Shown here in pieces: positions 9,529 to 60,140 of a DNA stretch of 64,000 nt (positions are counted from its first letter, which is position 1; each line of letters begins with the position of its first letter). The notes beneath the pieces are model-generated. The model was given only the letters and a program-made list of their open reading frames with translations. It was not told where the DNA came from and ran no database searches. The stretch lies in sequence record EF437941; one strand, 5' to 3'. Origin of the DNA: Escherichia phage Phi1. The translations under genes were made by a program, and so were the position numbers.

Positions 9529-10516
9529 TGAAAATAGTGTGATCTATCGCTCAATCATTACTAGTAAATTCAGAACGGAAAAACTTCTGAATTTCTATAA
9601 TTCTGTAGGCGATGGGGCAAATCAAATTACAATTTATGGAACGTTTGGACGTTCGGAGCCGTGGTCAGAAAACGAAAAAGAGGTGGGCTTTGCCCCACCT
9701 TATCCGACCGATTCAACGGCTGGTGTTGTTGACATGTGGACCCATATGATGGGGGCGGTTAAGATTAACAAATCACTTCTTGATGCGGTTATCCCTCGTA
9801 AAGATTGGGGTGATACCGGACAGGATAACCCGCGCACATTCTTTATCAATGACATTGTTGTTGTCAACTCAGCACCATATAACCGAACTGATGTTGGTAG
9901 CGGCTGGATGGTGTATCGCGTAACCGATGTTCCTGATCGCGGTTACTGCTCGATTTCAAGCATTGACGCTAAAGTAGAGTGTTTGAAGTTGGGCGGAAAG
10001 TGGACACCCACTCATGAATCAATTGCGCCACCTGTAGGAAAGGGCGATTCTATTGATATGGGTGATGGGTATCGTTGGGAATATCTGTACACAATTCCAC
10101 CTGATGCGGCGATCAACCGTTGCACCAATGAACATATTGTTGTTCCATTCCCGGATGAATTGAGACAAGATCCGGCGCGTTGGGGCTATGACAATGTGAT
10201 CACCTGGTATAATGACTATAATCTGCTTTATCGGCTGAAAGTAGTAACTTTGCGTTTTCAGGCTTATATGGACTCTGCGCAATTCCCAACTACCGCGTTA
10301 GTGGGTAATACTGGTTTCCGTCAGTTAAGCATTATCCTTAACCCATTGGAAAAGAAAGCACGCCCTAGCGATCCAGACGTTAAAGCGGTTCAAGATAAGT
10401 ACCGTCCGCAAGACTTAGAGCCACACTCAGGAGAAATGATCTACATGGAAAACCGACAACCTATCGTTCGGTCATTAGATCAAACAGAACTTGTTTCTGT
10501 ATTGTTTGAGTTCTAA
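9521..10516 (+). CDS. 8: baseplate wedge protein gp8
   Basis: 331 aa (T4 gp8 about 334 aa); synteny. Confidence 0.8.
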   Translation: MANENSVIYRSIITSKFRTEKLLNFYNSVGDGANQITIYGTFGRSEPWSENEKEVGFAPPYPTDSTAGVVDMWTHMMGAVKINKSLLDAVIPRKDWGDTGQDNPRTFFINDIVVVNSAPYNRTDVGSGWMVYRVTDVPDRGYCSISSIDAKVECLKLGGKWTPTHESIAPPVGKGDSIDMGDGYRWEYLYTIPPDAAINRCTNEHIVVPFPDELRQDPARWGYDNVITWYNDYNLLYRLKVVTLRFQAYMDSAQFPTTALVGNTGFRQLSIILNPLEKKARPSDPDVKAVQDKYRPQDLEPHSGEMIYMENRQPIVRSLDQTELVSVLFEF

Positions 10517-10530
10517 GTGTATGATTTAAA

Positions 10531-10557
10531 AGCCAATTCGAGAGAGTTGGCTTTTTC
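10531..10557 (+). terminator. rho-independent terminator after gene 8
   Basis: Hairpin AGCCAA-loop-TTGGCT followed by TTTTT. Confidence 0.6.
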
Positions 10558-10567
10558 TATTTTGGGT

Positions 10568-10597
10568 GTTTACAATCTTGTCTGGTAAAGGTATAAT
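10568..10597 (+). promoter_or_regulatory. sigma70-type (early) promoter for the methyltransferase island
   Basis: GTTTACA, 17-18 bp spacer, TATAAT; about 35 nt upstream of the 85-aa ORF. Confidence 0.6.
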
Positions 10598-10629
10598 GCT
10601 CACATCTAAACAACGGAGGAGGATAAATT

Positions 10630-10887
10630 ATGGCACGTCGTAAATTTACAGATAATTGTGAAGCAATTCAGGTATCCCCTTGCGGTTGGGATGTGATCGC
10701 GAACGGTGAAAAGATTGGAGAGATCATCGATCATACTCATTCATCACTAGCCGATTACACCGATGAACTATGGGAGGGTATCAACTTCATGAATGACACT
10801 AAACGATTCAAGACTATCGACGAAGCTATCTATTTTGTGTATAATCCAACTTTCGGTATGTGGGGAACTAGAAAATGGCACGCGTAA
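10630..10887 (+). CDS. hypothetical protein (85 aa)
   Basis: ATG with RBS GGAGGAGG; first gene of the island inserted between genes 8 and 9. Confidence 0.55.
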   Translation: MARRKFTDNCEAIQVSPCGWDVIANGEKIGEIIDHTHSSLADYTDELWEGINFMNDTKRFKTIDEAIYFVYNPTFGMWGTRKWHA

Positions 10888-52126: not shown

Positions 52127-52201
52127 TTGATACTCCTTAGTAGTTCGTTTCGGTATGGGTGTATTATGATATACACCCTCTGTTATGTCAACAACTTTTT
52201 A
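52127..52201 (-). promoter_or_regulatory. early promoter cassette 1
   Basis: On the - strand: A-run, TTGACA, 17 bp, CATAAT, conserved leader CCGAAACGA, RBS. Confidence 0.6.
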
Positions 52202-52378
52202 GAACATTTTTGAAATTAATTTTGCTTTGATTTCGCAGAGAACACCTAAAGATTTCTCGTCACCCGCTTTTGCTGCTTCTGATTGCATTTTTGAAATGGC
52301 TTCAATGTCAGTGCAATTATAAGCCGCTTGAACTTTAGCGATTGCGATGATTGCCGATTCGATGGTTAAGTGTTTCAT
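52202..52378 (-). CDS. hypothetical early protein (58 aa)
   Basis: ATG with RBS AGGAGA; below the ORF-track cut-off. Confidence 0.45.
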
Positions 52379-52447
52379 GTTTGATTCTCCTTTCGTTTCG
52401 GTATGTGTGTATTATGGGGGATCACCGATCCCCCTGTCAACAACTTT
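52379..52447 (-). promoter_or_regulatory. early promoter cassette 2 (GATC palindrome in spacer)
   Basis: TTGACA, spacer GGGGGATCGGTGATCCCCC, CATAAT, conserved leader. Confidence 0.6.
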
Positions 52448-52966
52448 TTAGTTATTTTTTAATTGCTCATCTTGCAATAGGGAAATCACATGCTGGCGAT
52501 GTTCTTCCGATTGAGGGACACCGAAAAAGTTTGTTTTGTAGAAATACTCTAATCGGTCTTCTCGTGTGCTCTCTTCCATCATGATCGCGGGTAGTCCGAG
52601 ATTTCGGAAACGTCGCTTTTCTGCTGGCGTAAAATCACTGTAATACAGCATAGAATCATCGTTACCAGCAATGCTAAACTCATCATTCATGAAGGAGAAT
52701 ATTGCGTTTAAACGCTGTTTACCGTCCACGATTTCGATCTCATAGCGAGAGCCATCATCAATCTTAGCCATTGCGATAGCACCAACCGGAAAATCATTAA
52801 TCAGGTTTTCGATAAACATACGTTTGTTTTCGGTGTCCCATACCAAAGGACGCTGATAATCTGGGTTCATGTTGATATAGCCATCTTCTAACCACGCCTC
52901 ATAAACAGAGATGACAAAGTTTTTAGTATTGGTATAGTAACGGCGTTTAGGCGTTAAACGGTTCAT
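52448..52966 (-). CDS. DUF262 / ParB-like nuclease-NTPase domain protein
   Basis: Start set to ATG at 52966 (RBS AGGAGA); PDYQRPLVW ... FIENLINDFPVGAI ... IVDGKQRLNAI matches the DUF262 signature (pFQR..W / DGQQR). Confidence 0.65.
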   Translation of the reverse strand: MNRLTPKRRYYTNTKNFVISVYEAWLEDGYINMNPDYQRPLVWDTENKRMFIENLINDFPVGAIAMAKIDDGSRYEIEIVDGKQRLNAIFSFMNDEFSIAGNDDSMLYYSDFTPAEKRRFRNLGLPAIMMEESTREDRLEYFYKTNFFGVPQSEEHRQHVISLLQDEQLKNN

Positions 52967-52967
52967 G

Positions 52968-53300
52968 TTATAGTCTCCTGAATGGATCATCACGTAAATC
53001 AATATCTTTTAAGAACTCATCCCATGAATGGCGGATATTGTTCTTAATTCTCCAGATAAGCGCAGGGATTGAACGCTCTCCCATCTGGAAGTAAGGATCA
53101 TATGATCCGTATGCCCAATATGCTACTACAATTCCACAATCAGCGCAATAATATTCTATTTCACTTGCTGGCGACCAAAGTCCATCAATATGATCGGTGA
53201 TCCTGCTTTCGATGTTATGGCTATGGCAATCAGGGCAACGGATGCAATGACCTTGTTTATCGTAATTTGACGTTAGCGAATACTTAAACAATCTCATCAT
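52968..53300 (-). CDS. Zn-ribbon protein (110 aa)
   Basis: CIRCPDCHSH ... YCADCG Cys/His clusters; translationally coupled to neighbours. Confidence 0.5.
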   Translation of the reverse strand: MMRLFKYSLTSNYDKQGHCIRCPDCHSHNIESRITDHIDGLWSPASEIEYYCADCGIVVAYWAYGSYDPYFQMGERSIPALIWRIKNNIRHSWDEFLKDIDLRDDPFRRL

Positions 53301-54013
53301 AGATCCTTATTGGCTTCAAATACTGCCTTTGCGAATCCTCGCGGGGTAAGTGACCTGATAGTCTTTGTTCTGGTTCCTTTCCCGCCTAGCTTAGAATGCT
53401 GTTTACTGTACCCTTTATTAATATGCAACGGTTTCTTTTCTGGCATTATAAAGCCTTGTCCGGTCCATAAGCAAGTCTTTTTCGGGTACATATCACGGGC
53501 GGCAATATACTCAGGAAACGTAGGATGTTTATCATCTTCCGGCAAATAACCGCCATATTCCCACGGATGGAACATGTAATCAGGCTTACGCCACATACTA
53601 GAGATAACGCTTACAGGATTCTCTATCATGTAGGGAACTCCTAGCCATTCACCCAAATAAGCGGTTATTTTAGCTGCCCGTACATCATGAACTTGAATCA
53701 ATGGTCCTTGTTCTCGTTTCTTTCGTTCAAAGTGTGCAGCGCCACTAACAGCTAAATTGGTGCACGGTGGGAATGCAAATATAATATCCGGTTTCCCCCA
53801 TTCAAGGTCCATTGCTCTTTCCAGCCAGTTCAAATCAATCCAGGTGTTTACATAAGTAATGTTTGGATGTTCAAATCTGGTATTATACTTTTTGTATGTA
53901 CCGTGGTCGGCGTCATCCGCATTAAAGCAGACTACCTTATGACCTGCTTTAGCCCATTCTAGCCCCATTATCCCCGATCCGTCAAAGTTGCAGAATATTA
54001 ATTTTTGTTTCAT
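53297..54013 (-). CDS. C5-cytosine methyltransferase-like protein (truncated, 238 aa)
   Basis: Motif I FCNFDGSGIMGLEWAKAG (FxGxGG), motif IV FAFPPCTNLAVSG (PC), motif VI MIENPVS (ENV-like), C-terminal SLTPRGFAKAV; no obvious target-recognition domain. Confidence 0.55.
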   Translation of the reverse strand: MKQKLIFCNFDGSGIMGLEWAKAGHKVVCFNADDADHGTYKKYNTRFEHPNITYVNTWIDLNWLERAMDLEWGKPDIIFAFPPCTNLAVSGAAHFERKKREQGPLIQVHDVRAAKITAYLGEWLGVPYMIENPVSVISSMWRKPDYMFHPWEYGGYLPEDDKHPTFPEYIAARDMYPKKTCLWTGQGFIMPEKKPLHINKGYSKQHSKLGGKGTRTKTIRSLTPRGFAKAVFEANKDL

Positions 54014-54503: not shown

Positions 54504-54587
54504 TGTTTGATTCTCCTAAGTGGTATCTCGTTTCGATGGTTGTATTGTAGGGGGAGTTATCCTCCCCTGTCAACACTTTTTATAAAA
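54504..54587 (-). promoter_or_regulatory. early promoter cassette 3
   Basis: TTGACA, palindromic spacer GGGGAGGATAACTCCCCC, conserved leader and RBS. Confidence 0.55.
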
Positions 54588-54755
54588 TTATTTGTTAATT
54601 TCTGGTGCGTTGCTAGGATAGTAACCTTCTTTAACTCCGAGGTATTTCGCAACCATCCCTACAATCTTCTGTGCTACTACAATGTCAAATTTCAGATAAT
54701 CTTCGCCGTGGGTTTCAATGATATATGCTTCACATGCTGCTTTAGTCTCGAACAT
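54588..54755 (-). CDS. hypothetical protein (55 aa), copy 1 of a duplicated gene
   Basis: MFETKAACEAYIIETHGEDYLKFDIVVAQKIVGMVAKYLGVKEGYYPSNAPEINK; paralogue at 57863..58030. Confidence 0.55.
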   Translation of the reverse strand: MFETKAACEAYIIETHGEDYLKFDIVVAQKIVGMVAKYLGVKEGYYPSNAPEINK

Positions 54756-54831
54756 TTTGATTCTCCTATTTCGTTTCGGTATGTGTGTAGTATAGGGGAT
54801 CTCCCGACCCCCGTCAACAACTTTTTTAAAA
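54756..54831 (-). promoter_or_regulatory. early promoter cassette 4
   Basis: TTGACG, spacer GGGGTCGGGAGATCCCC, conserved leader. Confidence 0.55.
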
Positions 54832-55113
54832 TTATTCGTGATTAGTTTCGATGTTGTGCATTTTGCACCAGTTCAACCAATCACCCATATCTTGATAGTT
54901 GATGCTTTTATCTGCTGCCATCGTTTTTGTCTTGATACCCATATGTGCGTTATGAGTAAGCATTTTTACAGTGAACTCAATTTTATCGCCTTTAGCTTTA
55001 ACATCAACCAGTTTGGTCCACTGGCTACCAGCGCCGCGAATGTTCATACCAACGATGTTTCCGATGTATGCTTCTTTGTTTTTCAGGATTTCGGTTGCTT
55101 TGATGAATTTCAT
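54832..55113 (-). CDS. hypothetical early protein (93 aa)
   Basis: ATG with RBS GGAGAA. Confidence 0.5.
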   Translation of the reverse strand: MKFIKATEILKNKEAYIGNIVGMNIRGAGSQWTKLVDVKAKGDKIEFTVKMLTHNAHMGIKTKTMAADKSINYQDMGDWLNWCKMHNIETNHE

Positions 55114-55183
55114 TTTTGATTCTCCAGTTCGTTTCGGTATGGGTGTATTATGCTATGTTCTTACTTTGGTGTCAACAACTTTT
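55114..55183 (-). promoter_or_regulatory. early promoter cassette 5
   Basis: TTGACA, 17-19 bp, CATAAT, conserved leader. Confidence 0.55.
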
Positions 55184-55453
55184 TTAGATATTTTCAGAAA
55201 TAAATTTTAAAACTTGACGTAAATGTTTCTCATCTTTGATAGTCGCCGGAAGTTCTTCTTTTACTTCCTGTGCAAGATAGATATTTCCGTTCCAAGTGAA
55301 AGATCCGTCTTTGTTTACGCGATAGCTGAACATCCACTCGCAATCATTTTCGATTTCATATACACACAGAAGGGTGTAATCGTTAAAGCTATTGATTTCA
55401 AGGTCGAAGCCGTGACGTTTTGCAAAGTTGGTAGTGGTTTTAGTCAGTGCCAT
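55184..55453 (-). CDS. hypothetical early protein (89 aa)
   Basis: ATG with conserved leader and RBS. Confidence 0.5.
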   Translation of the reverse strand: MALTKTTTNFAKRHGFDLEINSFNDYTLLCVYEIENDCEWMFSYRVNKDGSFTWNGNIYLAQEVKEELPATIKDEKHLRQVLKFISENI

Positions 55454-55545
55454 TGTTTGATTCTCCTAAGTGGTATCTCGTTTCGATGGGTGTATTATGC
55501 TATAGGTCGGATCTGGTGTCAATTCTTTTTTTAAAATTTTATGCA
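55454..55545 (-). promoter_or_regulatory. early promoter cassette 6
   Basis: TTGACA variant with conserved leader. Confidence 0.5.
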
Positions 55546-55572
55546 ATAAAAAAGCCGACGCTAAGGTCGGCT
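55546..55572 (-). terminator. rho-independent terminator (- strand)
   Basis: On the - strand: AGCCGACC-TTAGC-GTCGGCT followed by TTTTTTATT. Confidence 0.65.
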
Positions 55573-55579
55573 AATAAAA

Positions 55580-55888
55580 TCATTTAGACAAATAATCATT
55601 CAGTGCAATCCGGTCGGCGTATGCTGGTGTTACGTCAATCGCAATCACTTTAACGCGTGCTTTCTTGCGACCTGGGTTTTCACGTAACCAGTGCTCATGA
55701 CCGTGAACATTTTTATACTGCGATGCTTCTTCGAAGGTACGGATCGGACCTGGGTAATCAGCGTAAAGGATCTCTAGATCTTCGGTGATGTAAAAATATA
55801 CATCATAATTACTGTTCTCTAGTTTAAGCAGAGACTTTCGGAACATTGGGAGATTTTCGCGGGTAAATTCAAAGATATTATCTTTCAT
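55580..55888 (-). CDS. HxHW-motif small protein (102 aa), family member
   Basis: HGHEHW ... VIAIDVTPAYAD. Confidence 0.55.
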   Translation of the reverse strand: MKDNIFEFTRENLPMFRKSLLKLENSNYDVYFYITEDLEILYADYPGPIRTFEEASQYKNVHGHEHWLRENPGRKKARVKVIAIDVTPAYADRIALNDYLSK

Positions 55889-55938
55889 AGTATTATCCTC
55901 AATAGTTGGATGAGAAGGGGCGTTAACGCCCCCATATA

Positions 55939-56226
55939 TTAAAACAGTCCTTCATGTACACCGTAGTAGAGTTCGTCGCTGATAATTTCATTAATGCGAC
56001 GGTGTGCATATTCCTGATTTGCGAAGTTGTCAGCAAGTTCTACTTTAGTTTCGCCGTCATGAGTCCATTTAGTGATAACTTTACCATCTGCAAATTTGAA
56101 GTTGAACTCTTTAGCTACTGCATCGCGTACCAGACGTGCAAACTTATTGTTGCGGATTGCATTGTCGGTTTCGTGTGAAGCGTGAGCAAATTTGTTAACT
56201 TTCAGAGTGATAGTGATGTATGCCAT
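55939..56226 (-). CDS. hypothetical early protein (95 aa)
   Basis: Shares the AKEFN.K segment with the ORF at 59265..59576. Confidence 0.5.
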   Translation of the reverse strand: MAYITITLKVNKFAHASHETDNAIRNNKFARLVRDAVAKEFNFKFADGKVITKWTHDGETKVELADNFANQEYAHRRINEIISDELYYGVHEGLF

Positions 56227-56307
56227 AATTTGATTCTCCTAGTTAGAAAGTGTATCTCGTTTTGATGGGGATATTATGCTATATCCCCGATCCGGTGTCA
56301 ACACTTT
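56227..56307 (-). promoter_or_regulatory. early promoter cassette 7
   Basis: TTGACA, spacer with GATC, conserved leader. Confidence 0.55.
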
Positions 56308-56586
56308 TTATAAAATAATTTTTTGATATTTTTCTATGATGTTCGTGTAAGTCACATCAACCGCTAGCACCGTTGCTTCGAATCCACCGTTTAGCCAATG
56401 GCTATGATCATGGTCGTGAAAGAAACCTAGACCAGTACGAAGACCTTCTTTATATTCTGCGCGTACATTCAGTTTGTCGTCGATAAACAGATAAAACCAT
56501 GAATTTTTACTAGGATTGATGATACAACCTTTCAGATTAGGGAGAATATCACGACTAAGAATAAACTTATCACCTACTTTGAACAT
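56308..56586 (-). CDS. HxHW-motif small protein (92 aa)
   Basis: Start set to ATG at 56586 (RBS GAGGA); HDHDHSHW ... VLAVDV. Confidence 0.55.
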   Translation of the reverse strand: MFKVGDKFILSRDILPNLKGCIINPSKNSWFYLFIDDKLNVRAEYKEGLRTGLGFFHDHDHSHWLNGGFEATVLAVDVTYTNIIEKYQKIIL

Positions 56587-56590
56587 AATA

Positions 56591-56911
56591 TTAGTCCTCA
56601 CTTATAAGGTCAAACCAATTGTTTTTCGCATAATGCTTAATGCGTGCTTGATCTGCTTCCGCTGGTGATAGATTCCATGCAACCACTACAACTTCTGACG
56701 CATCGTCATCCGTTTCTGATACCCAATGATTGTGATTCATACAGTTATTTGCTATCGAGTGAGCAAATGATTTCATCACTGGAGACGTATAATCATAGTA
56801 ACGGATTTTCAGATTTTCATCAACATACAAATAGATCGTATAAGGTTTATATTCAGTAACCAGTAACAGACAGTTACGCAATTCTGGGAAAATCTTTTTA
56901 GTTAATTTCAT
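56591..56911 (-). CDS. HxHW-motif small protein (106 aa)
   Basis: NHNHW ... SPAEAD. Confidence 0.5.
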   Translation of the reverse strand: MKLTKKIFPELRNCLLLVTEYKPYTIYLYVDENLKIRYYDYTSPVMKSFAHSIANNCMNHNHWVSETDDDASEVVVVAWNLSPAEADQARIKHYAKNNWFDLISED

Positions 56912-57113
56912 ATTCTAGTTCTCCGTAATACACGGTAATCCATTTTTCTTCATACTTTGTATCTTTCCAACACACAATACCGTTTACTGTGCAATCTTTG
57001 GAATTGACGAATGATTCATATTGTTCCGCATCTTCCATCATTTCATGAGCGGTCTTTTCATCGAATATATCGCAGATCGCTTTATATGCTCGATAATCTT
57101 TAAATTTGCTCAT
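56898..57113 (-). CDS. hypothetical protein (71 aa), tandem paralogue B
   Basis: Start set to ATG at 57113; MSKFKDYRAYKAI... Confidence 0.5.
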   Translation of the reverse strand: MSKFKDYRAYKAICDIFDEKTAHEMMEDAEQYESFVNSKDCTVNGIVCWKDTKYEEKWITVYYGELEYEIN

Positions 57114-57115
57114 AA

Positions 57116-57325
57116 TTAACACCACTCAAGAGTTTTTGAAAACACATCTATCCATTGTTGAGTATATGCGGTTTCTTTCCATGATACAATACCAGTCGAA
57201 TAATGGTTTTTGTTTCCAGAAAAGGACGGGCATTTTGATGCATCTTCCATCATCTTTTCGGCGAACTCTGGTTCGTATACTCGCAAGATCTGTTGATATG
57301 CTTTATAATCTTTAAACTTACTCAT
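57116..57325 (-). CDS. hypothetical protein (69 aa), tandem paralogue A
   Basis: MSKFKDYKAYQQI...; similar to the adjacent 71-aa ORF. Confidence 0.5.
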   Translation of the reverse strand: MSKFKDYKAYQQILRVYEPEFAEKMMEDASKCPSFSGNKNHYSTGIVSWKETAYTQQWIDVFSKTLEWC

Positions 57326-57606
57326 AACAACACCACCGATACATCGTAATCATTCGCGGCCTTATCGGCTTCTTCAACCGACATAATACCTTCTGCGACA
57401 ATTGGCATAGGGTGATCGTGATTCCACCAATGGTCATGTATATCAATTTCAGTTTTGCCGGAAAATGAATCATGTTTGACGTTTTTCACTTTATACCCGA
57501 TGTGACCGTCGTGGTCAATAAAGATATAGTTTCCGAAAATCGGTGTCTGTAAAATCATACCGAAAAATTTTTCTTTGTTGTTCGGGTCGAGTGTAATCAT
57601 TTTCAT
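57322..57606 (-). CDS. HxHW-motif small protein (94 aa)
   Basis: HDHWWNHDH ... EEADKAANDY. Confidence 0.55.
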   Translation of the reverse strand: MKMITLDPNNKEKFFGMILQTPIFGNYIFIDHDGHIGYKVKNVKHDSFSGKTEIDIHDHWWNHDHPMPIVAEGIMSVEEADKAANDYDVSVVLL

Positions 57607-57618
57607 AATATATTCCTC

Positions 57619-57798
57619 TTAGAAAGGGATGGTCATTTCTTGAGCTTGTACATTCTCATTAGGATTAAACTTAATCCAACCGATATTGTCTACCAGCATA
57701 TGCACATTTTTATCATATCCTACGTGAGTAGTCAACACTAAATGTGATTTACCTTCAACGATGATTTCCATGTACTTCTGAACTTCGATAGCTTTCAT
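57619..57798 (-). CDS. hypothetical protein (59 aa)
   Basis: ATG with RBS GGAGAA immediately downstream of promoter cassette 8; below the ORF-track cut-off. Confidence 0.4.
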   Translation of the reverse strand: MKAIEVQKYMEIIVEGKSHLVLTTHVGYDKNVHMLVDNIGWIKFNPNENVQAQEMTIPF

Positions 57799-57862
57799 TT
57801 TGATTCTCCGTTTGTTGTCTTGATGGGAGTATCTTACTACTCCCTTTAATCATTGTCAACTA
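57799..57862 (-). promoter_or_regulatory. early promoter cassette 8
   Basis: TTGACA, 17 bp, TAAGAT. Confidence 0.5.
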
Positions 57863-58030
57863 TTATTTGTTAATTTCCGGTGCGTTGCTTGGATAGTAAC
57901 CTTCTTTAACACCCAGATATTTTGCAACCATTCCGGTGATCTTCTGTGCTACTACGATATCGAATTTCAGGTAGTCTTCACCGTGGGTTGCTACAAAGTA
58001 TGCTTCGCATTCTGCTTTAGTCTGGAACAT
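57863..58030 (-). CDS. hypothetical protein (55 aa), copy 2 of a duplicated gene
   Basis: Start set to the internal ATG at 58030; MFQTKAECEAYFVATHGEDYLKFDIVVAQKITGMVAKYLGVKEGYYPSNAPEINK. Confidence 0.55.
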   Translation of the reverse strand: MFQTKAECEAYFVATHGEDYLKFDIVVAQKITGMVAKYLGVKEGYYPSNAPEINK

Positions 58031-58100
58031 TTTGATTCTCCTATATCTCGTTGGTATGTGTGTAGTATAGGGGATCGGTGATCCCCTGTCAACAACTTTT
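58031..58100 (-). promoter_or_regulatory. early promoter cassette 9 (GATC palindrome)
   Basis: TTGACA, spacer GGGGATCACCGATCCCC, conserved leader. Confidence 0.6.
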
Positions 58101-58409
58101 TTATTCTTCATCTTCATTTTTATCTTTATATGCGTACTTCATAAATTTGTCTGCTACTTTGTCCGCGTTTTCAGGTTCTACGTCTGACGCTAGGACAACA
58201 GCTAGTTCGGTTTTGTCGTTTCCATCATACCAATGATTATGAGTGTCGTTTTCTTCGATATAAAACGAATCATTTGGAGTTGTGCGACAATATACGTCTA
58301 AATTCCCATCGATATAAAAGATCCAATCCGAATACAAAATGATTGCGTTAGCCAGATTTTTATTGTCTCTTACAAAAGGTTCCGCGACAAATAGCTTAGT
58401 TTGTTCCAT
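58101..58409 (-). CDS. HxHW-motif small protein (102 aa)
   Basis: Start set to ATG at 58409 (RBS GAGGA); THNHW ... AVVLASDVEPENAD. Confidence 0.5.
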   Translation of the reverse strand: MEQTKLFVAEPFVRDNKNLANAIILYSDWIFYIDGNLDVYCRTTPNDSFYIEENDTHNHWYDGNDKTELAVVLASDVEPENADKVADKFMKYAYKDKNEDEE

Positions 58410-58425
58410 AATATTTTCCTCAAAA

Positions 58426-58617
58426 TTATACAGCTTCGTAAACTTCCCAATGTTCAGCGCCAACACGCTTAACGAAAAGGTTTTCTTTGATGTTATTCAT
58501 AAACGTCTGGATGGATTTAATGCGGTTGGAAGGTTTCCAGTCTTCGTTGGCATTGCGATGATACATAATAACATTACCAGTTCGCTTATATTCAGCAACC
58601 ATTTTAAGACCACACAT
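58426..58617 (-). CDS. hypothetical protein (63 aa)
   Basis: ATG with RBS GAGGA. Confidence 0.45.
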   Translation of the reverse strand: MCGLKMVAEYKRTGNVIMYHRNANEDWKPSNRIKSIQTFMNNIKENLFVKRVGAEHWEVYEAV

Positions 58618-58674
58618 AATATTATCCTCAATTTGTGGGAGAGTATTACCCCTCCCAATGATTGTTATGTTATA

Positions 58675-58995
58675 TCACACAAAATGGCGTGTCAATGCTT
58701 CTTTTGCGGTTCCGCTAAGACTTTCGATCTCGCCTGGCATAACATCAACCGCCAGAACTTCTACAACATCCTCGGACCCTAACCAGTGAGTATGGCCTTT
58801 GTAGAACTTGATAACCAGACTACCTTCCTCATCCCATTTAACACTATCGCTAGCCCACCACACATCACCGTCGATAAAGTTGATGTAAAGCACACTACGC
58901 CACATTGAATTAATTACTTTCAATACTGCGCCTTTCATCTCTTCCACGGTATGGTCTTCCATTTTGAAGACCTCACCTACCTGAACTTTTGCCAT
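58675..58995 (-). CDS. HxHW-motif small protein (106 aa)
   Basis: GHTHW ... VLAVDVMPGE. Confidence 0.55.
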   Translation of the reverse strand: MAKVQVGEVFKMEDHTVEEMKGAVLKVINSMWRSVLYINFIDGDVWWASDSVKWDEEGSLVIKFYKGHTHWLGSEDVVEVLAVDVMPGEIESLSGTAKEALTRHFV

Positions 58996-59012
58996 TTAGT
59001 CACCTCTCTTTA

Positions 59013-59192
59013 TTACATAACAATCACGCCAGCCGTTGAAAGTTGATGTTTCAACTGAGCATTTTCTGCTACCGTCAAATCAATGATTTCTTGTGACGCT
59101 GCAATCATATATCCATTGGTGATATTGTTTTGCATCAGTTCAATGGTTTCTTCGTTGTAGCGGATTTTAGCGATGATTTCGTTGAAGTTCAT
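59013..59192 (-). CDS. hypothetical protein (59 aa)
   Basis: ATG with RBS AGGAGA downstream of promoter cassette 10; below the ORF-track cut-off. Confidence 0.4.
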   Translation of the reverse strand: MNFNEIIAKIRYNEETIELMQNNITNGYMIAASQEIIDLTVAENAQLKHQLSTAGVIVM

Positions 59193-59264
59193 GATTGATT
59201 CTCCTAGTTCGTTTCGGTATGTGTGTATTATAGGGGATCTCCCGATCCCCTGTCAACAACTTTT
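59193..59264 (-). promoter_or_regulatory. early promoter cassette 10 (GATC palindrome)
   Basis: TTGACA, spacer GGGGATCGGGAGATCCCC, conserved leader. Confidence 0.6.
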
Positions 59265-59576
59265 TTAAAGTTTTTCCATGATAACGGTCATAATTACATC
59301 TTCTGCGCGAGCGGTCAGATTATCAGCGTCAGCATGTGGGCGGTTGGTTGTTACAGAGATAACACCGTTGCGCACTGGTTTGATATTGATATCAAGATGA
59401 TCCGCGAAACGTTCGCCAGTTACAGAATGAATTTTGGTGTTAAATTCTTTTGCCAGTGCCTTGCGAACTTCACGAATCAGGGTAGCGTTTTTCAGTTGGT
59501 TCTCCGCGCTCATGGTCTTCTGGGTGTTCATGGTTCCGTCGAAGTCAATCATTGGCAGCGTTACGATGTATTTCAT
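59265..59576 (-). CDS. hypothetical early protein (103 aa)
   Basis: ATG with conserved leader and RBS. Confidence 0.5.
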   Translation of the reverse strand: MKYIVTLPMIDFDGTMNTQKTMSAENQLKNATLIREVRKALAKEFNTKIHSVTGERFADHLDINIKPVRNGVISVTTNRPHADADNLTARAEDVIMTVIMEKL

Positions 59577-59663
59577 TTTTGATTCTCCGTTTAAGAAAGT
59601 GTGTTTCGTTTTGATGTGTGTATTATAAGGGGATCACCGATCCCCTGTCAACAACTTTTTGAA
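59577..59663 (-). promoter_or_regulatory. early promoter cassette 11 (GATC palindrome)
   Basis: TTGACA, spacer GGGGATCGGTGATCCCC, conserved leader. Confidence 0.6.
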
Positions 59664-60140
59664 TTATTTTTCTTGATGCTCGCGCTCGTACTTTTCGAAA
59701 TAAAATTCTACTGGCTGATCGTGGATTGAAAGCAAGCCAAAGCGTTTAGCCGCTCGCAATCCCATATTGCGCTGAATGTACTTCTGGAAGTTCTCGCGTA
59801 TACACTTACGCCAGGATTCTAAGCCCATACAGCTTTTATAAAGATTGCATTGCACACACGCCGGATTCATGTTATCAAGTATATCATGCTCCGGTTTATG
59901 CATTCCTACAACCTTATACTTCCACGATCCATCATCATTACGAGCAATTCGTCCATTTTCATCATAGACTACCTTTGAGCGTCGTAATACTGGTTTGATG
60001 TGGTCTGCGTGCCAGCGATCCCCTAGTTCCTCGCCACAATAGGCACAACGTCCACCATATTTCATTTTCAGGATCTGGCGTTGCTCTTTCTTTGACAATT
60101 TTTTAGGTTTAGGGGCTTTCGCCCCTTCATTATCACACAT
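59664..60140 (-). CDS. HNH endonuclease
   Basis: CAYCGEELGDRWHADHIKP plus NMNPACVQCNLYK (HNH motif with paired Cys clusters); start overlaps the ligase gene end. Confidence 0.75.
   Translation of the reverse strand: MCDNEGAKAPKPKKLSKKEQRQILKMKYGGRCAYCGEELGDRWHADHIKPVLRRSKVVYDENGRIARNDDGSWKYKVVGMHKPEHDILDNMNPACVQCNLYKSCMGLESWRKCIRENFQKYIQRNMGLRAAKRFGLLSIHDQPVEFYFEKYEREHQEK

Follow-up and report, generated by a model that had tools for sequence, protein, structure and literature searches.

The stretch of Escherichia phage Phi1 analyzed here (sequence record EF437941; 64,000 nucleotides, hereafter the window) carries six small genes, p1 to p6, between positions 55580 and 58995 whose products share an HxHW motif. 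The window derives from a Krischvirus, an RB49-like T4-type coliphage, with GEC-3S as its closest relative (98.7% identity), and every one of the 57 phage records matched by bases 55000-60000 was a Krischvirus or an RB49-like T4-type coliphage. The six genes are located in the alt-DNA ligase hyperplastic region, and its counterpart in GEC-3S is flanked by the alt ADP-ribosyltransferase gene and the HNH endonuclease/DNA ligase genes and annotated as a series of "hypothetical proteins" with promoters and terminators between them. The six open reading frames (ORFs) of 92-106 aa listed in a preliminary description of this DNA were recovered on the minus strand, coincided with annotated GEC-3S coding sequences, and were all preceded by a GAGG/GGAG Shine-Dalgarno sequence 6-9 nt 5' of the ATG (6/6 genes). 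The encoded proteins are small, soluble, and mostly acidic, with p5 as the most acidic copy (pI 4.3), and the p2 ATG follows the p3 stop codon by 4 nt, forming a tight p3-p2 gene pair. The genes are as follows, with the PHROG family of each product and, for four of them, the ratio of nonsynonymous to synonymous substitution rates (dN/dS):

55580..55888, minus strand: p1, 102 aa, HEHW, PHROG 9345, dN/dS 0.19
56308..56586, minus strand: p2, 92 aa, HDHDHSHW, PHROG 17255, dN/dS 0.10
56591..56911, minus strand: p3, 106 aa, HNHW, PHROG 9345, dN/dS 0.22
57322..57606, minus strand: p4, 94 aa, HDHWWNHDH, PHROG 15972
58101..58409, minus strand: p5, 102 aa, THNHW, PHROG 15965
58675..58995, minus strand: p6, 106 aa, GHTHW, PHROG 16486, dN/dS 0.13

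Sequence comparison joined the six proteins into a single paralogous family, as the preliminary description had proposed. Each protein was compared by phmmer with all 589 stop-to-stop segments in the window, and the top non-self matches of each were other family members. The strongest pair was p1-p3 (E 6e-13), identifying p3 as the closest paralogue of p1, and six further significant pairs (p1-p2, p1-p6, p1-p5, p2-p3, p3-p5, and p4-p5; E 1e-4 to 3e-3) linked all six proteins. The weakest link was p4, for which comparison of a profile of its orthologues with a p1/p2/p3/p6 profile gave an hhalign probability of 97.6% (E 3.8e-12) and placed HDHW on HEHW. Pairwise identity between paralogues was ~20-32% (22-32% to p1 in a MAFFT alignment), the only residues invariant in all six being H-x-H-W and one Ala, and the HxHW columns were invariant in three MAFFT alignments such that the His clusters are positionally homologous, also as claimed. 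Six-frame translation of the window gave eight occurrences of the pattern H.HW compared to 1.36 +/- 0.97 in shuffled DNA, six of the eight being the family genes; a hidden Markov model (HMM) built from the six detected no seventh member in the window. Two further features attributed to the family held in part. The V/I-x-A-x-D-V block was exact in four of the six proteins and altered in p3 (VVAWNL) and p4 (IVAEGI), with the RB49-type allele of p4 carrying the canonical IIAVDV unlike the p4 of the window, and the acidic tail was present in p3 and p5 and missing from the other four copies. In the PHROG collection the six proteins are split over five "unknown function" families (9345, 17255, 15972, 15965, and 16486) with weak cross-matches; these five are one six-member family. 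The low pairwise identity (21-32%) was the sole point in favor of a chance resemblance or of non-coding ORFs, a reading that is practically excluded because of the significant pairwise and profile statistics, the H.HW enrichment, the ribosome-binding sites, dN/dS values far below 1, and the confident and concordant models of p1 and p2.

Structure prediction supported a common fold for the family. The AlphaFold2 models of p1 (predicted local distance difference test, pLDDT, 85.9; predicted template modeling score, pTM, 0.81) and p2 (pLDDT 89.0; pTM 0.84) displayed the same order of elements, consisting of a beta strand, a short alpha helix, three beta strands, a loop, a short helix, the fifth beta strand, and a C-terminal helix. 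The His-Trp of HxHW lies at the start of the short helix in both models, the V-L-A-x-D-V block forms the fifth strand, and the loop before the HxHW helix is length-variable and of lower model confidence. With the p1 model as query, BFVD yielded family members of other Krischvirus phages and nothing else, including a p3 orthologue (template modeling score, TM, 0.79), a p2 orthologue (TM 0.69), and a protein of 102 aa, probably p5 (TM 0.65). Superposition with one other small alpha/beta protein covered 65-67 residues at 2.8-3.0 A. Neither unrelated folds nor non-homologous His clusters, the two outcomes that would have spoken against a family, were thus encountered, and the six proteins are predicted to share one compact alpha/beta fold.

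The family is a stable attribute of the genus. Eight genomes were compared (the window, GEC-3S, RB49, JEP8, kaaroe, JK32, G2248, and Skers), with exactly one orthologue of each paralogue in 8/8, and six copies were found in 9/9 Krischvirus-type genomes when a 169-kb Krischvirus-like metagenomic contig (L013) was included, in each case within the alt-ligase region and behind strong sigma70 PeSL early promoters, the set being conserved in a fixed order across the genus. Each copy is held by purifying selection, with dN/dS of 0.10-0.22 per orthologous group (Nei-Gojobori). These gene-wide values and the constant copy number do not support the earlier designation of the family as diversifying, and the divergence between paralogues is ancient rather than ongoing. 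Among orthologues, the fraction of variable columns was 0.08 for HxHW, 0.28 for the preceding loop, and 0.35 for the C-terminal part. Conservation of the motif could also reflect a pure fold determinant, with the Trp packed into the hydrophobic core, the His capping the helix, and the function lying elsewhere, maybe shared or redundant between copies kept for dosage. The other conserved blocks are the Trp and hydrophobic beta motifs typical of core positions (Y-I-D and V-L-A-x-D-V) and the motif opens the short helix leading to beta5 in both models, as such a role would predict. Yet the paralogues are 20-30% identical while orthologues are 84-100% conserved (except p4 and p5 between alleles, at 53% and 68%), which points to distinct roles and not to dosage, and a polar His kept to such depth is unusual for structure alone, so that this explanation is considered unlikely.

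The exceptions to this conservation were restricted to deep allelic variants of p4 and p5 and to the replacement of a slot in one genome. Two alleles of p4 are 53% identical, the rarer being held by the window and GEC-3S and the commoner being the RB49 type, and at least three allelic types of p5 occur (68% identity). The synonymous divergence (dS) between these alleles was ~0.7 although the Krischvirus genomes are otherwise >90% identical, which identifies the variants as old alleles exchanged by recombination and not as products of recent positive selection; the pattern suggests cassette replacement by recombination rather than divergence by point mutation. The slot replacement was found in the L013 contig, where the p3/p2 slot (positions 9989-10671) holds two divergent p3-like genes, the p2 orthologue being absent and a second p3-like gene taking its place such that the total is still six.

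Distant relatives provided information on the history of the array. A 2.1-kb uncultured phage contig (SRR8048117_15661, here L002) encodes five family domains in four genes, namely a p6-like gene, a fusion of p2-like and p5-like domains, a p4-like gene, and a p3-like gene, which is the order of the window. The fusion protein (P0090; positions 823-1434) is a natural 203-aa two-domain protein with HNHW in each domain. A second uncultured phage (L003), with ~72% DNA identity to Krischvirus, has two copies in its ligase-alt interval. The order of the paralogues is therefore partly kept in distant uncultured relatives. The divergent relatives fell within individual paralogue clades of a neighbor-joining tree, indicating that the phage lineages split after the duplications had occurred; the genes probably stood at one time in a plain tandem array. 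Such an array would have arisen when one accessory gene was amplified and its copies sub-functionalized, an origin with a laboratory precedent in the T4 counter-defense gene tifA, for which segmental amplification under toxIN pressure is reported (Srikant, Guegler & Laub, 2022, PMC9391042). The likeness lies in a small early accessory gene of a T4-type phage giving a tandem array, a plausible route to the ancestral state; the tifA copies are recent and identical, whereas the HxHW copies are old, at 20-30% identity, and each is conserved in its own right, and no sequence relationship links the two.

Conservation within the motif bears on the suggestion that the family might bind metal. Across 40 diverse members the second His and the Trp were the only invariant motif residues, while the first His was conserved in ~90% and replaced by Ser in the p5 orthologues of RB49, kaaroe, and JEP8, which are under purifying selection, and by Asp in the family member P0089. 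The additional His residues of p2 (HDHDHSHW) and p4 (HDHWWNHDH) vary between orthologues. Asn replaces the AxDV Asp in p3 and Gly replaces it in p4, the Y-I-D segment of p1 has Thr for Asp, and no Cys occurs in p1, p4, or p6, leaving no third or fourth metal ligand conserved across the family. A self-contained mononuclear metal site within one chain appears unlikely because the first His, the extra His, and both Asp residues are unconserved and Cys is absent from three of the six proteins. Such a site could instead be assembled by a dimer, since with two ligands per chain it would have to span the interface, and P0090, as a natural fusion, agrees with dimerization. The family might then coordinate Zn, Ni, or Fe through two HxH motifs, in a structural or a metal-sensing or sequestering role. 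The depth of conservation of the two His residues, the surplus His of p2 and p4, and the tandem fusion, which would place two HNHW motifs in one chain, would suit such a site, as would sub-threshold sequence matches to Cupin_2, a histidine-triad zinc protein, and an MBL fragment. Every one of these metal-family matches was far below threshold, and together with the replaced and variable ligands this weakens the suggestion and makes a metal-binding role doubtful.

Database searches placed the family outside described protein families. A word-indexed search of 5.8 billion proteins retrieved 86 clusters (90% identity), all of them orthologues of the six on Krischvirus-type T4-type contigs (~165-176 kb) and all lacking a Pfam domain, and an exhaustive HMMER search of 1.84 billion representatives retrieved 19 matches only. 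Scans of the six proteins against Pfam and NCBIfam gave nothing above threshold, with scattered weak matches to PROCT, Cupin_2, TTL, and ISL3, and a Pfam scan of the 40 family members gave sub-threshold matches only. None of the six matched PADLOC defense families at E <= 1, and a search of IMG/VR with two divergent members as queries returned no match. In phage T4 no family member was found in 18 kb around alt-gene 30 or among the small ORFs, the alt-gene 30 interval of T4 containing alt.1 only. The HxHW family was not mentioned in the literature searched, and term searches of two articles on RB49/phi1 cassettes (PMC2839356 and PMC4122927) returned no paralogues, gene families, HxHW family, or motif. 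The family is an orphan restricted to Krischvirus and close uncultured relatives.

Several known families were considered and rejected. The JAMM/MPN metalloproteases are defined by the Pfam gathering threshold and an E...HxH-x7-S-xx-D motif in a domain of ~130 aa; the PROCT match reached 18.7 bits against a cut-off of 23.6 and was limited to p2 orthologues (3/40 members), the spacing between the second His and the Asp varied from 14 to 19 residues, the Asp lies on a beta strand, and no upstream Glu or Ser is conserved. Cupins are characterized by G(X)5HXH(X)3-4E(X)6G together with a second motif and a beta-barrel, while Cupin_2 matched 2/40 members at E 0.19, its 11.9 bits being short of the 27.2-bit cut-off, and the models are alpha/beta and not jelly-roll. 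In histidine triad (HIT) proteins the motif is H-phi-H-phi-H-phi-phi, where phi is hydrophobic, on a beta strand; the motif in combination with a Pfam HIT match was not found in the family. One protein (P0075) is labeled "KOW2-KOW3 of Spt5" in the annotation of a metagenome-assembled genome, and neither a KOW Pfam match nor an SH3-like fold match was found to support a KOW/SH3-like barrel. The best sequence-profile match in the Protein Data Bank was the NEAT domain of IsdC (E 0.29), in which the shared "NHSHW" string was judged coincidental.

The six genes are distributed over three predicted transcription units headed by early promoters of the PeSL class and closed by a terminator. Members of this class are recognized by an AT-rich tract, TTGACA/TATAAT boxes, a G/C-rich stem-loop, and a Shine-Dalgarno sequence plus ATG of a small ORF in a hyperplastic region, as set out by Arbiol et al. 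(2010, PMC2839356), and these features were found at 59256, 58092, and 56301 (repeat families D1, D3, and D4). The regulatory features of the region are:

59227..59256, minus strand: PeSL early promoter, TTGACA-18-TATAAT with a GGGGATC...GATCCCC stem-loop in the spacer; annotated promoter in GEC-3S
58064..58092, minus strand: PeSL early promoter and stem-loop, 3' end of the p6-p5 unit and head of the next
56273..56301, minus strand: PeSL early promoter, stem-loop overlapping the -10 box
55553..55572, minus strand: intrinsic terminator directly 3' of p1 (-11.5 kcal/mol, z -4.2); annotated in GEC-3S
52131-52210, 52379-52466, 54536-54599, 54757-54844, and 55115-55194, minus strand: intergenic PeSL-like repeats, copies 1-5
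55473-55537, 56252-56316, 58032-58111, 59195-59282, and 59614-59677, minus strand: intergenic PeSL-like repeats, copies 6-10

The unit starting at the PeSL at 59256 comprises a 59-aa ORF, p6, a 63-aa ORF, and p5; that from 58092 comprises small ORFs, p4, two paralogous small ORFs, p3, and p2; and that from 56301 comprises a 95-aa ORF and p1 before the terminator. All three promoters are of the sigma70 type (TTGACA-17/18-TATAAT) with 11/12 or 12/12 matches, and their G/C-rich stem-loops lie in the spacer or over the -10 box (-13 to -17 kcal/mol, z -2.1 to -3.0). The ten copies of the 65-80 nt intergenic repeat match RB49/phi1 PeSL cassettes and share a layout on the minus strand consisting of an AT-rich tract, TTGACA, a G/C stem-loop, TATAAT, a conserved leader, GGAGAATCAA, and ATG. 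For this class, strong promoter plus terminator activity by reporters is described for a few RB49/phi1 cassettes in the same study (PMC2839356). The assignment of the genes to an early region was thus borne out, as immediate-early expression via unmodified host RNA polymerase is well supported by the consensus PeSL promoters.

The whole region is built from duplications. Small proteins of unknown function interleaved with the HxHW genes form three paralogue pairs, all on the minus strand. The first (55939-56226 and 59265-59576) and the second (56898-57113 and 57116-57325), which is a tandem duplicate, correspond to PHROG 7474 and PHROG 8471, both copies having been scanned. The third, at 54588-54755 and 57863-58030 (PHROG 8009, with 57863-58030 scanned and 54588-54755 paired by sequence), is embedded together with its PeSL in a 300-nt direct repeat (54534-54833 and 57809-58108, 78% identical). 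Further along the minus strand, a Dcm-like DNA methyltransferase gene (53297-54013) is followed downstream by a 110-aa ORF (52968-53300) and, as the second gene, by a 172-184 aa ORF at 52448-53002. The apparent counterpart of this second ORF in L013, assigned by position and length only, matched Pfam GmrSD_N (DUF262), and the window ORF may be a candidate GmrSD-N-like protein near a methyltransferase. On the other side, an HNH endonuclease gene (59664-60140, minus strand) is directly downstream of the DNA ligase gene and overlaps its stop codon (60133-60140); T4 has no gene at this position, suggesting a homing-endonuclease insertion.

With regard to function, the proteins are tentatively regarded as small, cytoplasmic, early, non-enzymatic binding modules directed against host or host-defense targets, a reading that falls somewhat short of an even chance. 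They would act immediately after infection, each copy against a different host or host-defense target or a different variant of one target, with the HxHW helix as a common contact or structural pivot and specificity set by the adjacent variable loop and the C-terminal helix. The proteins would probably be homo- or heterodimers, as suggested by the fusion of two domains in P0090 and by the close spacing of p3 and p2. Several points weigh against the proposal: the term "binding module" derives from context, size, and the lack of an enzyme signature; the early timing draws on promoter sequence and on assays of the RB49/phi1 PeSL class; annotation of the neighboring genes yields no functional clue, since all interleaved genes are of unknown function and guilt by association gives nothing specific; and a His without exception in the family would more usually be expected where catalysis or metal binding takes place than at a plain protein-protein interface.

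An alternative is that the proteins are minimal enzymes or ligand sponges, in which the His would be a general base or phosphate contact and the Trp a stacking surface; nucleotide-derived immune signals, for instance, would be hydrolyzed or sequestered, each paralogue being suited to a different molecule. An invariant His-Trp beside a variable loop fits a small-ligand pocket and early expression in an accessory region is in keeping with such a role, but no second conserved polar residue is available for a catalytic site and no match to known anti-defense or enzyme families was found in Pfam, NCBIfam, or PADLOC, such that this alternative is quite improbable. A similarly slim prospect is an unrecognized fold with an exposed and possibly dimer-paired HxHW that would bind a metal or a nucleotide-derived ligand, the six proteins forming an early panel of inhibitors or sponges against different E. 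coli defenses or signals.

The family can be set against what is already known. The genes are annotated as hypothetical in >50 genomes, and ORFans behind PeSLs in T4-type hyperplastic regions have been described. The PeSL-flanked ORFan cassettes of RB49/phi1 share the genus, the type of region, and small ORFs behind sigma70 stem-loop cassettes with the locus reported here, and closely related phages are described as differing in the ORFans they have gained and lost (Arbiol et al., 2010, PMC2839356; Comeau et al., 2014, PMC4122927), while the six HxHW genes are a stable genus-wide set. What appears to be new is that five PHROG entries, existing as unrelated-looking families, are joined in one family with a motif, a fold, a fixed copy number, and purifying selection.

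Phage therapy cocktails against E. coli make use of RB49-like phages, most of whose early accessory genes are orphans; among these the HxHW family is a compact and well-defined target for takeover or anti-defense screens, of greater interest if the anti-defense or ligand-binding reading is true. For the T4-type phages more broadly, it offers a clear case of a hyperplastic region in which the products of an old tandem amplification were apparently kept and sub-functionalized, not lost.

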